This document shows positions 49,504 to 61,442 of a DNA stretch of 64,000 nucleotides, piece by piece. Both the position numbers and the translations under genes were made by a program. Position 1 is the stretch's first letter. Every line of letters starts with the position of its first letter. Location: IMG/VR virus record IMGVR_UViG_3300012000_000001, positions 96,001 through 160,000 of that record. One strand, 5' to 3'. The notes beneath the pieces are model-generated. The model did no database searches, was not told the origin of the DNA, and worked only from the letters and a program-made list of their open reading frames with translations. Source of the DNA: a virus.

Positions 49504-51165
49504 ATGCTTAAAACAACTATCGTTACTGGAATATGGGATCTTGGTAGAGATTCTCTAGGTGAGGGCTGGAGTAGGTCTTTCGAACACTACAAAGATAAGT
49601 TCTCACAACTGCTACAATCTTTAAAAGATGTTCAGCTAATAGTATTTATAGACCCGAAGCATGAAGATATAGTCTGGAAATATAGATCTCCAACTAATAC
49701 TGTTGTTTATCATCATTCAGCAGATAATTTTGATAACAATTTTTTCCCATTCAGGCCACAAATAGAAAAAATAAGAACAAATGAGCAGTGGTTGTCTCAA
49801 GCTGGATGGTTAAAGGATAGTACGCAAGCTAAATTACCACTTTACAATCCGATGGTAATGAGTAAAATGTTCCTTCTGCATAATGCGAAAATATTCAATC
49901 CATTTAATAGTGAATATATGTATTGGCTAGATGGTGGAATATGCAATACTGTTCACCCTGGATATTTTAGCCATGACAACGTAATAGAAAAAATACAAAA
50001 TTTAACTAAAAAGTTTCTATTTATATGTTTCCCATATGAAACTAATAGCGAGATACATGGATTCGATATCTCTAAAATGAGAGAATATTCGAAAAATGAT
50101 AATGTTAATCGGGTTGCTCGCGGTGGGTTTTTCGGTGGGCATATAGATTATATTTCTGAAGCCAATAATTTATACTACTCTCTTTTAGCGGATACCCTAT
50201 CTAATGGACTAATGGGTACTGAAGAAAGTATTTTTACTATTATGACCTATTTACAACCAGAAGTATATCAATACGAAAGCATTAATGGTGATGGGTTAAT
50301 TTCTACATTTTTTGAAAAAGTCAAAAATCGTGAAACAACAATAGAGCAGGCTCAGCAAAGTAATCCTAGAAAAAAGCATACCAATAGCGATACTGTGCTC
50401 TACATTAATGCTTTTAATTCACCAGAACAATTGCAAATGGTTTTGGATAGTTTTGAAAAATATGACAATTCATTTATTGCCCAAACTAAAAAGATATTAA
50501 TTAACAATACAACAAATAATGAATTATTTCCGCAATACGACGCTATATGCTCAAAATATTCATTTGCAGAACATATAAAAAAGGGAAATCTTGGAGTATG
50601 TAGGGCAAGACAATTTGCAGCCGAGCATTTCGCCGATTTGGGTTCCAAATATATGATATTTTTTGAAGACGATATGTTGCTGGATTATTCTAGGGCTAAA
50701 TGTGATTTTGGTTTCTGCAAACCAGCCCAAAATCTACTGCACTCTTTAATTCGTATAATGGATAATGAAGAATATGATTTTCTTAAATTTAGCTTTAGTG
50801 AGTTTTATGGACACAACGGAGAACAGTGGAGTTGGCATAATGTTCCATCTGATTTGAGGGTTAAATATTTTGGTGGAACGACTAAAAGACCTCTAACCAA
50901 GTTCACAGTGATAAAATCTTATAATGGTCTTCCATATGCTGAAGGAGAGATTTACTATTCTAACTGGCCCCATATTATAGATCAAGAAGGTAATCAAAAG
51001 CTGTTTTTAGACACTAAATGGGATAGACCATTTGAACAAACTTGGATGAGTCACATATATACCCTAACAGTTAATGGTGTTGTTAAGCCCGCTATATTAC
51101 TAGCTAGTCCAATTACACATAATAGAGTACATTTTTATGAAGCGACAGAACGTAAAGAAAACTAA
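49504..51165 (+). CDS. HtrL/YibB-like domain fused to a GT-A glycosyltransferase domain
   Basis: TTIVTGIWDLGR...RSFEHY, MSKMFLL, YWLDGG, GGFFGG, TEESI; C-terminal AFNSP, GVCRAR, IFFEDD; start MLKTTI. Confidence 0.75.
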   Translation: MLKTTIVTGIWDLGRDSLGEGWSRSFEHYKDKFSQLLQSLKDVQLIVFIDPKHEDIVWKYRSPTNTVVYHHSADNFDNNFFPFRPQIEKIRTNEQWLSQAGWLKDSTQAKLPLYNPMVMSKMFLLHNAKIFNPFNSEYMYWLDGGICNTVHPGYFSHDNVIEKIQNLTKKFLFICFPYETNSEIHGFDISKMREYSKNDNVNRVARGGFFGGHIDYISEANNLYYSLLADTLSNGLMGTEESIFTIMTYLQPEVYQYESINGDGLISTFFEKVKNRETTIEQAQQSNPRKKHTNSDTVLYINAFNSPEQLQMVLDSFEKYDNSFIAQTKKILINNTTNNELFPQYDAICSKYSFAEHIKKGNLGVCRARQFAAEHFADLGSKYMIFFEDDMLLDYSRAKCDFGFCKPAQNLLHSLIRIMDNEEYDFLKFSFSEFYGHNGEQWSWHNVPSDLRVKYFGGTTKRPLTKFTVIKSYNGLPYAEGEIYYSNWPHIIDQEGNQKLFLDTKWDRPFEQTWMSHIYTLTVNGVVKPAILLASPITHNRVHFYEATERKEN

Positions 51166-52450
51166 GGTTATCAAACCGAAGTCCAAATTAAATAACCAAG
51201 AAACTATATTTGTGCAAATAGCGGCTTATAGAGACCCTCAACTATTACCGACTCTAAGGGATTTATTTAACAAAGCCAAATATCCACAAAATATTACCGT
51301 GGGCATATGCTGGCAACATTGTTCTTCCGATGAGTGGGACACACTTGAAGAGTTTCGTGATGATCCAAGAGTTAAAATTATTGATATAGATTATAAAACT
51401 AGCCAAGGAGTATGTTGGGCTAGAAATTTAGTTCAGTCTTTATACAATAATGAAACATATACATTACAATTAGACAGCCATCATAGGTTTGTACAAAATT
51501 GGGATGCCACACTTATAGATATGCTAAAATATCTACAAAATAAGGGTCACCAAAAACCATTAATCACAGCCTATATACCAAGTTTTGATCCAGATAATGA
51601 CCCAGCAAGCAGGGTACAAGAACCATGGAAAATGAACTTTGATAGGTTCATACCAGAAGGAGCGGTTTTCTTTCTTCCTGCATCATTTGATGAGTGGGAT
51701 GATAAAACGCAACCTCTACCAGCTAGATTTTATAGTGCCCATTTTGCCTTTAGTGTTGGCGCTTTTTGTACAGAAGTTCCACATGATCCAGAATATTACT
51801 TTCATGGAGAGGAAATAAGCATAGCTGCTAGAGCATATACTCATGGATATGATCTTTTTCATCCTCATAAAGTGGTGTGTTGGCACGAATATACGCGAAA
51901 AGGTAGAACAAAACAATGGGATGATGATAAGAAATGGTTTGAGAAAAATAATCTTTGTCATCTTAAAAATCGTAAATTGTTTGAAATGGATGGAGAAAAA
52001 AGAGATATAGATTTTGGAAAATATGGATTCGGTTCAGTGAGAACTTTAAGAGACTATGAAAAATATAGCGGCTTATCCTTTGGAAAAAGAGCAATCCAAA
52101 AAAGAGTTCAGGAACATAAAGCTCCCCCAGATCCAGAAACCTCAAATTTATCAGACGAAGAATTTGATAAAAAATTAATGAAAATTTTCAAACATTGTAT
52201 AGATATTCAGTACGGACAAGTTCCAGAAAATGATTATGATTTTTGGGCCGTTGCTTTTAAAGATCAAAACGGAGTAGATATTTATCGGCAAGATGCTGAT
52301 AAAGATGAAATATTGCGAATGAAGAATGATCCCGATGGTTATTGTAAAGTATGGAGAGAATTTCAAACAGAAATTAAGCCATCTAGCTGGATTGTTTGGC
52401 CACATAGTATTAGTAAAGGATGGGCTGATCCAATTATTGGTGGCCTATAA
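51137..52450 (+). CDS. GT60-like polypeptide/hydroxyproline alpha-GlcNAc transferase
   Basis: IFVQIAAYRD, GVCWAR, LQLDSHHRF (DSH), AHFAFS, VPHDP, FHGEEI...RAYTHGYDLFHP, WHEY. Confidence 0.85.
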   Translation: MKRQNVKKTKVIKPKSKLNNQETIFVQIAAYRDPQLLPTLRDLFNKAKYPQNITVGICWQHCSSDEWDTLEEFRDDPRVKIIDIDYKTSQGVCWARNLVQSLYNNETYTLQLDSHHRFVQNWDATLIDMLKYLQNKGHQKPLITAYIPSFDPDNDPASRVQEPWKMNFDRFIPEGAVFFLPASFDEWDDKTQPLPARFYSAHFAFSVGAFCTEVPHDPEYYFHGEEISIAARAYTHGYDLFHPHKVVCWHEYTRKGRTKQWDDDKKWFEKNNLCHLKNRKLFEMDGEKRDIDFGKYGFGSVRTLRDYEKYSGLSFGKRAIQKRVQEHKAPPDPETSNLSDEEFDKKLMKIFKHCIDIQYGQVPENDYDFWAVAFKDQNGVDIYRQDADKDEILRMKNDPDGYCKVWREFQTEIKPSSWIVWPHSISKGWADPIIGGL

Positions 52451-59415: not shown

Positions 59416-61442
59416 GGTATTATATCTCCAAAACACGTTGAATTAATAGAATATGAATATCCCGGATTAACTGTGTCGCAATCTATAGCAGATACTGGTA
59501 GTGGGTTCCATGAATTACTATTATTTAATGAATATTCAATAGAACAACAACATTCGCTATTCTTCTCTACCTGCAATTCTACAATTATACCATTATTAAT
59601 AAGAGCGCCGTCAATAAATCCATCACAAATTATAATTTCATTACACGACTCCCAGCAGTACTCCTCCGTAAAACTAGACCAAGCACTATCTAATGCAGAC
59701 TCTTGGCAATAGTTTAAAGAAATAGTTTTGATTCTAAATTTAACATAGCCGTTGGAACATTCTTGAGAGGCTGCTATATTGTCTGGTCTAGGTCCCAATA
59801 GACTTGTTAAAGAAAAATTGTATGAATTAATAAGAGTATTGAATATACAAACCTGATCTAATAATTGTCCATTATGGTCTACCGCTTGAATCATATAGCC
59901 TGTAGCGCAGCTTTGATTATTTGGAGAAGATAATCCTGACCATGACCAATTCAAAGAGACTAATGTATCATTTGCGCCAGCCACCCCATCATCAAAACAC
60001 GCACAACCAGATTCTACAATAGTAGGAGGAGATAACTGACAATTCACAGACGGTGTTGGTGTTGGTGTGCTTGAAGGTGACGGTGTGCAACAATTACAAT
60101 TATTGGTATCTCCATCAAATACCCATACTGGAGGCACATCACACTGACAAGCAGTAGATGTTCCTGAAATATTTAGACCATTAACACAAGATATATTGGC
60201 GGTAGCTGTCCATTTATTAGCGCATGATGATGATCCCGTATATGGTACGCTGGGATCACATGTTACTGCCATAAAATATGTGTCGCCACATGATAATGTT
60301 CCACTACTAGTCCAATAATTAGGCATGACTTTAGTGAAGAATAAATCTAATGTTATCGTTCTACTCATATTACTACAGTTTAATACAAATGTAGTCAAAC
60401 CATTCCAATCACAACATGTTCTGGGCGAAATAGATGGTGTTGGAGTACTAGTGGCAGTTGGTGTTGGTTTAGGAGTTTGGGTTTTAGTTACTGTGGGTGT
60501 TGGACTAGATGTTGGTGTTGGAGTACAGCAACTACAATTAGAAAAATCTGCAATAAAACTCCAAATAGGAGGAGCATTACACTGACATACTTCTCTAACC
60601 CCTGTAATTATTAAGCCAGTAGCGCATGACATTGTGAGTGAAAAAGACCACTTATTGATACACGAGTTTGCTCCAGCGTATCTAATATCTGGATTACAAG
60701 TTATTGTAGACGTAAAAGTGTCTCCACAATTTAATGTCCCGTTTGCAGTCCATGTAGATGGTCCCGTCTTTGTATACTGCACTGGTAATATTAAATTATT
60801 ACAGGTTTCTCCAAACTGAATAAATGTATTACCATCCCATTCACAACAAGTTTGTCTCGACGGGGTAGGTGTTATAGTTGCTGTTGGCGTTGCTGTTGGA
60901 GTTATTGTATTTGTCGGAGTGGTTGTTGGTGTGGATGTTTTGGTTGGGGTGATAGTATTTGTTGGAGTAACAGTAATAGTTGGTGTTACTGTTGGTGTTT
61001 TTGTTTGTGTAGGAGTTACAGTTGGTGTTTGAGTCTTAGTAGCAGTTATGCTTGGTGTTGGAGTTGGTGTTCTTGTACTAGTAACTGTCATTGTTGGAGT
61101 GACAGTAGGAGTACTAGTTATGGTCGGTGTGACAGTAGGAGTTCTAGTTACTGTTGGGGTTTGTGTTTTTGTAGGTGTTCTAGTTGGTGTTCTTGTAGGG
61201 GTTTTTGTAGGGGTTTTAGTTATAGTCGGAGTTATTGATGGAGTGATTGTAGGAGTAGGTGTAGGTGTTTTTTTAGGAGTTTTAGTAGGTGTAGGCGTTT
61301 TGGTTAAAGTTCTAGTTGGTGTAGGAGTGACCAAAGAACGATCAATTATAATACATGTTTCATCCGACCTAATTTTAGGCGGTTTAGGCGTAGGACTTGG
61401 TGTTCTTGTGGGTGTTGGAGATGGAGGTATTATCTTTGACAT
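59412..61442 (-). CDS. mucin-like Thr/Pro protein with two 12-Cys repeat domains and a C-terminal beta-sandwich-like region
   Basis: About 157-aa TP-repeat stalk; two aligned Cys-rich modules. Confidence 0.8.
60858..61328 (-). repeat. degenerate (T-x-T-P-T-x)n coding tandem repeat
   Basis: TPTVTPT/TKTPT/TRTPT units throughout aa 39-195. Confidence 0.9.

Follow-up and report, generated by a model that had tools for sequence, protein, structure and literature searches.

Mucin-type O-glycosylation that is initiated by glycosyltransferases of the families GT60 or GT27 is regarded as a eukaryotic trait, and protein glycosylation by phages is known from few cases. The characterised GT60 enzymes are polypeptide alpha-GlcNAc-transferases for mucin-type domains in Dictyostelium and Trypanosoma cruzi (PMC8724618), and the T. 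cruzi protein gp72 carries a heavily glycosylated domain of the form PTVTPTP...TPTPTVTPTP (PMC3630849). Here we analyse a GT60-type gene of a virus, located at 51137-52450 of a stretch of 64,000 nucleotides (hereafter the window) that corresponds to bases 96001-160000 of the IMG/VR record IMGVR_UViG_3300012000_000001 (197,026 bp, rated complete by CheckV). The virus is a tailed phage, as its large terminase and portal protein demonstrate; both are encoded, together with fibre or decoration proteins, in a long structural module on the plus strand. Next to the GT60 gene lie a gene for a double glycosyltransferase, a set of putative tailoring genes and genes for proteins rich in threonine and proline (Thr/Pro). 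We estimate a probability of about 60% that these genes belong to a phage-encoded, cytoplasmic, mucin-type protein O-glycosylation system.

The phage enzyme shares the profile PF11397, a GT-A fold and a DxH motif (DSH) with the protist GT60 enzymes, namely the initiators of Dictyostelium and T. cruzi and Gnt1, which acts on Skp1. Like Gnt1, it is predicted to be soluble and cytoplasmic, and the candidate acceptors of the phage resemble the mucin-type domains of T. cruzi and Dictyostelium in their dense Thr/Pro tracts; in Dictyostelium, the PTVT repeats of PsA are probable GT60 substrates. In contrast to the protist enzymes, it originates from a tailed phage, lacks a Golgi membrane anchor, possesses an additional C-terminal domain and is paired, sometimes fused, with a double GT-A enzyme, while no prolyl hydroxylase was found. 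Metazoan GT27 enzymes are its best structural matches and share with it the DxH motif and the layout of a catalytic domain plus a C-terminal domain. However, sequence identity to them is only 11-17%, they belong to another Pfam family, and the C-terminal domain of the phage enzyme is a small beta domain and not evidently a ricin-type lectin.

Among cultured phages, XacN1, Xoo-sp13, CM1 and RAS14 resemble the phage studied here in both enzymes (46-49% identity for GT60, 37-39% for the double transferase). In XacN1 and RAS14, jumbo phages of Xanthomonas/Stenotrophomonas, the pair is accompanied by tailoring genes as here, which it brackets at a distance of 4 kb, and XacN1 and its relatives likewise encode many proteins with TPTxTPT linkers. 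However, the backbone of this group is unrelated to that of our phage and its tailoring gene encodes a carbamoyltransferase. XacN1 virions contain at least two glycoprotein bands that stain with periodic acid-Schiff (PAS), for which the transferases ORF328 and ORF334 were suggested to be responsible (Yoshikawa et al., 2018, PMC5852040). We found ORF334 to be the GT60 homologue and ORF330 to be the HtrL-like double transferase.

Virus-encoded protein glycosylation as such is already known from chloroviruses, mimiviruses and mycobacteriophages. The latter O-glycosylate structural proteins in the host cytoplasm by means of their own transferases, as is proposed here (Freeman et al., 2023, as cited in PMC12619734). 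While their glycans reside on short C-terminal extensions of capsid and tail-tube subunits, the present proposal concerns long Thr/Pro tracts; as far as that work is recounted in the citing paper, neither a GT60 enzyme nor long mucin-like Thr/Pro tracts are mentioned. The capsid glycans of PBCV-1 and the fibrils of Mimivirus resemble the proposal in that virus-encoded glycans are placed on virus proteins independently of endoplasmic reticulum and Golgi, yet hosts, virion architecture and transferase families differ. An earlier interpretation of the DNA without database searches (hereafter the sequence-only reading) had envisioned a giant-virus-like glycosylation in a tailed phage. The tailed phage proved correct. 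Glycosylated virions of tailed phages are not unprecedented, given the PAS staining of XacN1 and the mycobacteriophage work in so far as it is cited. A literature search returned no description of GT60 enzymes in phages, nor of GT60 linked to Thr/Pro tracts, and a search on GT74/HtrL returned nothing relevant.

The GT60 enzyme and the double transferase

The open reading frame (ORF) of the GT60 gene matches PF11397 (GlcNAc, CAZy GT60) with an E-value of 7.8e-77 and 259.5 bits at a cut-off of 21, and a genome-level search agreed. Its metal motif DSH is located at residues 113-115 within LDSHHRF; among 63 homologues, each of D113, S114 and H115 is retained by 90% or more, while H250 is invariant. 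The AlphaFold2 (AF2) model (predicted local distance difference test, pLDDT, 94.6) predicts a GT-A fold with a DxH metal motif, as in the GT27/GT60 group, and an additional beta domain at approximately residues 347-437, beyond the Pfam match. Among the matches listed by Foldseek against the PDB, 30 of 31 are GT27 polypeptide GalNAc-transferases from animals and Toxoplasma (best E 2e-9); a PDB sequence search gave no match at E 0.01 or better. Thus the sequence-only reading, which had noticed a GT60-like enzyme with the DSH motif and proposed profile and structure searches, is confirmed: the protein falls in GT60 and its fold is nearest to GT27. Given a basic N-terminus and neither a hydrophobic segment nor a membrane anchor, the enzyme is predicted to be soluble. 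More than 7,500 close homologues were found in metagenomes.

One metagenome protein of 2461 amino acids (P0126) comprises four GT60-like stretches and carries at its source the annotation of a prolyl hydroxylase fusion (Tpa1-like), a hint that hydroxyproline may be the acceptor of some relatives. For the phage, a hydroxyproline-GlcNAc route as on Skp1 was considered and rejected as unsupported: the prolyl hydroxylase family PF13640 is absent from the phage, and the hydroxylase part of P0126 has no phage homologue.

The gene for the double transferase overlaps the GT60 gene by 29 nt. Its ORF opens at 49408 and ends at 51165 (+), but M33 at 49504 is the probable start (585 amino acids), since homologues cover 95% of the protein and the model leaves residues 1-31 disordered; the sequence-only reading begins its region at that coordinate. 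While it matches HtrL_YibB (PF09612) with E 2.1e-14 and 54.2 bits at a cut-off of 24.1, it stays far below the cut-off of the NCBIfam equivalog TIGR02192 (52.5 vs. 264.9 bits). Judged by these profiles, it is a distant two-domain relative of HtrL and not an HtrL equivalent. The top Foldseek matches of its AF2 model (pLDDT 87.2) are two-domain transferases, among them LARGE1, Mimivirus R699, LH3, K4CP, COLGALT1 and PmHS2; the low TM-scores of 0.22-0.27 indicate that the tandem GT-A plan is the only common feature. More than 5000 metagenome homologues share 65-88% identity with it, some of them fused to FkbM, and in three proteins the double transferase is fused to GT60 itself (P0170, P0187, P0234).

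Both enzymes occur together in 72 of 80 related IMG/VR loci, where the pair brackets, or precedes, 2-10 variable transferase-sized genes. Two arrangements were found. The first comprises the HtrL-like gene, GT60 and variable genes, then the genes of the S8 and the trypsin-like protease, a variable position frequently occupied by Thr/Pro proteins, and an actin gene; in the second, large Thr/Pro fibre-like proteins are followed by GT60, variable genes and the HtrL-like gene. By analogy, such a conserved core with a hypervariable tailoring set matches the pattern of glycan-diversity loci.

Thr/Pro-rich proteins of the phage

Two proteins of the window are candidate substrates (Table 1). The larger one, P0002, starts with a tract of 195 amino acids with 42% Thr and 22% Pro; residues 37-195 comprise 76 Thr and 34 Pro, whereas Thr and Pro make up 6.7% and 4.1% in the genome as a whole. 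This tract closely resembles the gp72 domain. The protein further contains 40 Cys, two repeated Cys-rich modules with Thr/Pro linkers between them and a Cys-rich C-terminal region; for the modules, no family was found in Pfam or the ESM Atlas. P0001 consists of poly-Pro/PT tracts, a PA-IL-like region, a DUF642/choice-of-anchor-C domain and a C-terminal (PT)n tract. Both P0001 and P0002 lack a signal peptide. The third Thr/Pro-repeat protein of the sequence-only reading did not hold up: this ORF of 47 amino acids keeps just the first 17 residues of a family of 190/196 amino acids and is thus probably a truncated copy. In addition, three Thr/Pro-rich proteins are encoded in the structural module outside the window (genome positions 19608-21347, 70869-75410 and 75856-77295). 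The genome contains five Thr/Pro clusters.

The small Thr/Pro proteins (57751-57894; L011:16689-17848) have in common an N-terminus of the form MTIININCCPV.TQKPL, behind which a Thr/Pro linker leads to a C-terminal domain that varies. Their layout resembles an exchangeable anchor-linker-head design.

P0002 and P0001 are the last genes of a unit that begins with a single-pass membrane protein of 105 amino acids (tm105) and an actin-like gene. The GGTGTA motif upstream of this unit also precedes genes of the structural module, which suggests that P0002 and P0001 are co-expressed with virion genes. The motif and the conserved N-terminal peptide of the small Thr/Pro proteins would fit a late, virion-associated role. 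The actin-fold protein of the unit (61461-62783, minus strand) is of the Volactin type (PF25216, E 3.6e-64), with a median identity of 81% in 33 loci.

Co-distribution of GT60 and Thr/Pro tracts

We used a DNA pattern for TPTxTPT, which in this genome matches the five Thr/Pro clusters only. Eight complete genomes with an intact GT60 gene (G000-G004, G053, G054, G115) contain 10-88 TPTxTPT-coding matches each. In contrast, two syntenic genomes (G055, G116), from which precisely the GT60 cassette and the second transferase island (43680..48087) are missing, contain none. In a further genome of 194,787 bp (G117), the GT60 gene at 101506-102418 is broken by several in-frame stops, and four matches were found. 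Two genomes (G056, G057; CheckV 100% and 92% complete) were left out as fragments that end before the region. The Rak2-like clade, which is unrelated, gave the same picture: the GT60-bearing phages XacN1, Xoo-sp13 and RAS14 contain 51, 51 and 22 matches, those of XacN1 being located in annotated coding frames, whereas the GT60-less RaK2, Atu_ph07, SCTP-2 and GAP32 contain none. Overall, tracts occur in 11 of 11 GT60-bearing complete phage genomes vs. 0 of 6 GT60-less ones (Fisher p 8e-5, phylogeny ignored).

A search in the reverse direction agrees. PF11397 was detected in 16 of 44 IMG/VR contigs that were picked for an in-frame TPTxTPTxTPT, but in none of 50 contigs picked by a random 15-mer (p 9e-7); the GT60 proteins of these 16 contigs share 26%-68% identity with that of our phage. 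Strand and frame were checked for all pattern-selected loci, of which 6 of 80 were doubtful. The adjacency of GT60 and a Thr/Pro tract in G050 was rejected, as the matching sequence is a (VG)n repeat of a PASTA-domain protein read in antisense. Since (VG)n reads as (TP)n on the opposite strand, strand-blind searches can mistake it for a Thr/Pro tract. That locus (L448:9304-12540) comprises a divergent GT60-like gene (PF11397 E 8.9e-23) beside a portal gene and a protein of 735 amino acids, in which PASTA domains are combined with long (VG)n repeats and a Hint-like C-terminus.

The association extends to bacteria. In bacterial genomes, 23 of 80 GT60 loci comprise a Thr/Pro-rich ORF, in all cases at most 5.7 kb and in seven at most 0.5 kb away. 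In Paraburkholderia, Ralstonia, Paraherbaspirillum and Achromobacter, this ORF encodes VgrG, a type VI spike protein, which here bears a (TP)n tract. The distance between the VgrG-(TP)n genes of cultured Burkholderiales and the respective GT60 homologue (44-49% identity) is 1-4 kb (Table 1).

Tailoring genes and genome setting

The genes that follow the GT60 gene, their flank and two further islands of glycan-related genes on the minus strand are listed in Table 1. Of the genes that the sequence-only reading had noticed near the GT60 gene, the GT25 transferase was borne out by PF01755 and the HtrL-type transferase by PF09612; two methyltransferases match the families FkbM and Methyltransf_24. 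The FkbM-type enzyme may O-methylate sugars. Among the three small cassette ORFs, the best Pfam matches are spermine-synthase-like (E 0.22) and GT2 (E 0.046, for the ORF of 256 amino acids at 54601-55371, which is weakly GT2-like), with nothing stronger. The S8/trypsin protease pair is a conserved flank of the cassette (55756..57440), and a search for relatives of the S8 protease gave six loci. The adjacent HNH endonuclease is probably a mobile insert outside the glycosylation system.

Elsewhere in the window, further transferases had been proposed as extenders. GT15, GT77-type, O-FucT-like and GT4 enzymes were recovered, as was GT2; however, GT47 (exostosin) gave no match in the window, the nearest being the RXYLT1_C match. 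The GT15 enzyme corresponds to fungal Kre2/Mnt1-type alpha-1,2-mannosyltransferases, and none of the 80 related loci contains a homologue. To our knowledge, this family is almost restricted to eukaryotes. The third sugar island possibly provides enzymes for nucleotide-sugar supply and chain extension.

Table 1. Positions of the features discussed. Coordinates refer to the window unless a contig is given; aa, amino acids; loci, the 80 related IMG/VR loci.
Feature	Position	Strand	Basis	Remark
Third sugar island: GT77-type, O-FucT-like, 690-aa unknown, NDP-sugar dehydratase/epimerase, RgpF-like	24906..30685	-	GT77-type PF03407 E 2.7e-11; O-FucT-like E 1.3e-7	O-FucT-like match barely above cut-off
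Second glycosylation island: GT2, GT2-like, Methyltransf_24, RXYLT1_C-like, 283-aa unknown, GT15	43680..48087	-	Methyltransf_24 (45057-45575) E 1.3e-22; GT15 (47251-48087) PF01793 E 2.9e-35
Conserved double glycosyltransferase	49504..51165	+	PF09612, model	N-half HtrL_YibB-like, C-half GT-A with FFEDDM
GT60-family soluble glycosyltransferase, putative initiating polypeptide transferase	51137..52450	+	PF11397 profile, model, no hydrophobic segment
GT25-like glycosyltransferase	52457..53236	+	PF01755 E 1.3e-12	14/80 loci
FkbM-type methyltransferase	53223..53918	+	PF05050 E 9.9e-7
Three cassette ORFs (234, 256, 127 aa)	53900..55759	+		7-14/80 loci
S8 subtilase	55756-56727	-	PF00082 E 1.4e-51	48/80 loci
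Trypsin-like protease	56685-57440	-	PF00089 E 1.2e-14	Signal-like hydrophobic N-terminal segment; 45/80 loci
HNH endonuclease	57349..57744	-	PF01844 E 8.2e-9
Thr/Pro ORF, 47 aa	57751..57894	-	Translation	First 17 aa match L011 relatives
P0001, 505 aa, candidate glycosylation substrate	57919..59436	-	Composition, domain matches
P0002, 676-aa mucin-like protein, candidate substrate	59412..61442	-	Composition, repeats
Terminator-like hairpin (62851-62830), then GGTGTA motif (62813-62808)	62808..62851	-		30 nt upstream of tm105 unit
Burkholderiales VgrG with (TP)n	L523:15078-17567		Phage_GPD, Phage_base_V, Gp5_C domains
Burkholderiales VgrG with (TP)n	L500:12270-15134		Phage_GPD, Phage_base_V, Gp5_C domains
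Burkholderiales VgrG with (TP)n	L481:13906-16395		Phage_GPD, Phage_base_V, Gp5_C domains
Burkholderiales VgrG with (TP)n	L506:15052-17523		Phage_GPD, Phage_base_V, Gp5_C domains

Besides the structural module, the genome encodes a DnaB-type helicase, a primase, a UvsX-like recombinase, a ribonucleotide reductase, a sigma factor and RuvB. Its large terminase shares at most 25% identity with any cultured phage, but 77-100% across hundreds of IMG/VR contigs; the phage is thus a member of a large uncultured lineage. The replicative polymerase is split into two ORFs of 622 and 541 amino acids, both matching phrog_405, with an ORF of 232 amino acids in between (window 6217-10585, minus strand). The structural module contains an ORF of 5,990 amino acids outside the window (genome 40435-58407, plus strand) and, farther along, ORFs of 2,130 and 2,646 amino acids that adjoin Thr/Pro fibre-like proteins. 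Contigs from metagenome-assembled genomes (L465, L472, L471, L466-L468) carry GT60 at 54-63% identity in bins of Saprospiraceae, Lewinellaceae, Cytophagaceae or Bacteroidia, one of them being phage-sized with 230,278 bp. This binning may reflect Bacteroidota hosts or mis-binning.

Discussion

GT60 co-occurs with long Thr-Pro tract proteins in phages and in bacteria, and on these grounds the phage probably sugar-coats its own fibre-like proteins. The soluble GT60 enzyme would place the first sugar on Thr (or Ser) in alternating Thr-x-Thr-Pro tracts, using a nucleotide sugar as donor, by family precedent UDP-GlcNAc. As candidate acceptors we regard P0002 and P0001 together with the fibre-like proteins with Thr/Pro linkers from the structural module; devoid of a signal peptide, these would remain in the host cytoplasm for folding and assembly. 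Next, the double GT-A enzyme, which is translationally coupled to GT60, may add two more sugars or a repeating disaccharide, and the GT25-like, FkbM, Methyltransf_24, GT2, GT15, GT77-type and other enzymes might extend and cap the chain. Since the tailoring neighbours are variable, the glycan would differ between phage strains. As a result, stiff, protease-resistant, glycan-covered stalks with lectin-like or Cys-rich heads could arise, either as released proteins or as virion appendages. Acceptor, donor sugar, order of steps, virion location and biological role are the parts of this scheme that we infer.

Two findings are in line with such a mucin-type system: dense Thr/Pro proteins are encoded in the phage's own genome, and enzyme and tracts co-occur across genomes, the latter with few independent events and with tracts that exist without GT60 as well. 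Several observations, however, weigh against it. The phage contrasts reduce to roughly two independent events: a single clade seems to hold both GT60-less genomes, G055 and G116, and another comprises the four cultured GT60 phages. G055 keeps poly-Thr linkers (TTTTTDAP) without GT60, and four viral genomes of at least 90% completeness (G005, G021, G023, G040) have Thr/Pro tracts but no GT60. Local proximity, on which the sequence-only reading had relied, was dropped as the chief evidence: a Thr/Pro gene lies within 10 kb of GT60 in 35 of the 80 related loci, which is about the rate of random placement because these phages carry 5-10 Thr/Pro genes each, and G004 has no Thr/Pro gene within 20 kb of GT60. 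The co-occurrence which that reading had proposed to look for was found among whole genomes and lineages (11/11 vs. 0/6; 16/44 vs. 0/50), but was not clearly above chance at the scale of about 10 kb. Moreover, the strong conservation of GT60 (60-89% identity) contrasts with the hypervariability of the Thr/Pro proteins, and instead of P0001 and P0002, Thr/Pro fibre proteins encoded in the structural module may be the substrates and the virion residents. Finally, it is for this phage and XacN1 alike that we infer, rather than observe, sugar on the Thr/Pro tracts.

The alternative that survives best, though we consider it unlikely, is that the GT60/HtrL cassette builds or remodels a non-protein glycan. 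This could be a lipid-carried lipopolysaccharide, capsule or wall polymer of the host at the cytoplasmic face, or a free oligosaccharide, in which case the Thr/Pro linkers would serve as simple flexible spacers and be co-inherited with the cassette. The near-chance proximity of Thr/Pro genes to GT60 and the tracts without GT60 would fit this idea. The HtrL_YibB and GT25 families, according to their descriptions, include lipopolysaccharide-core enzymes, and individual GT-A domains in the model of the HtrL-like protein yield matches to the teichoic acid enzymes TarP and TarS as well. However, no polytopic membrane protein of the Wzx, Wzy, phosphoglycosyl-transferase, flippase, polymerase or Gtr type is encoded in the genome. 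The fold of the GT60 enzyme matches polypeptide transferases first, and the characterised members of its family act on proteins (PMC8724618). In addition, co-inherited spacers would not account for the co-variation of GT60 and Thr/Pro tracts in two unrelated phage clades, nor for GT60 genes beside bacterial VgrG.

Somewhat less probable still is a cassette that glycosylates phage proteins other than the Thr/Pro tracts, e.g. capsid or tail-tube subunits. The precedent is given by mycobacteriophages, whose own transferases glycosylate the C-termini of capsid and tail-tube proteins (Freeman et al., 2023, in so far as cited in PMC12619734). The PAS-stained bands of XacN1 may be such proteins, and a conserved acceptor would suit the strong conservation of GT60. 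Yet such acceptors leave unexplained why TPTxTPT tracts are lost where GT60 is absent and why GT60 lies beside (TP)n-tailed VgrG in bacteria, while the precedent for GT60 itself consists of Thr-rich mucin domains or the hydroxyproline of Skp1.

A role of GT60 in host takeover, with a host protein as its target as in the case of effector glycosyltransferases, is very unlikely. A soluble and highly conserved enzyme would suit this role, and a sigma-70-like TTGACC-17-TAATAT directly upstream of the cassette fits early or middle expression; this point is weak, and a scan for sigma-70 promoters gave matches no better than shuffled sequence. A single host target would not need 2-10 hypervariable tailoring transferases and methyltransferases, the co-variation with Thr/Pro tracts would be left unexplained, and the enzyme is also found in bacterial chromosomes beside VgrG.

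Least likely of all is a hypermodification of phage DNA with glycans against restriction: while phages with multiple transferases decorate 5-hydroxymethylcytosine (5hmC) or 5-hydroxycytosine (5hoC) with varied glycans (bioRxiv 10.1101/2023.12.21.572611; PMC13326640) and the GT60 gene of XacN1 lies near replication genes, the known pathways start from a thymidylate-synthase homologue or a TET-type dioxygenase, neither of which was found in the phage (PF00303, with positive controls in 10 genomes; Tet_JBP PF12851, a weak negative since its control was silent), and the GT60 fold is nearer to polypeptide than to DNA transferases.

Beyond this phage, one might speculate about a widespread cytoplasmic mucin-type pathway of bacteria and phages that is of the eukaryotic GT60 kind, and we regard the chances for and against it as evenly balanced. 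A conserved three-domain core of GT60 and a LARGE-like double transferase would prime Thr-x-Thr-Pro stalks of proteins that are exported independently of Sec, i.e. phage fibres, adhesins and type VI VgrG spikes, and a fast-changing tailoring set would generate a strain-specific coat. If this were true, there would be consequences for adsorption, recognition and resistance to proteases as well as for views on the origin of the protist GT60 enzymes.

The pair of GT60 and double transferase has thousands of close homologues in freshwater metagenomes and is also found in phages of plant pathogens and beside type VI spikes. As XacN1 grows in culture, the proposal can be put to a direct test there. 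If the proposed O-glycosylation holds, it would provide simple soluble enzymes with which mucin-like glycoproteins could be produced in bacteria, and a large share of environmental phage particles would carry self-made, strain-variable glycans. This would bear on phage adsorption and stability, on the sticking of phages to polysaccharide matrices and on the engineering of receptor-binding proteins.

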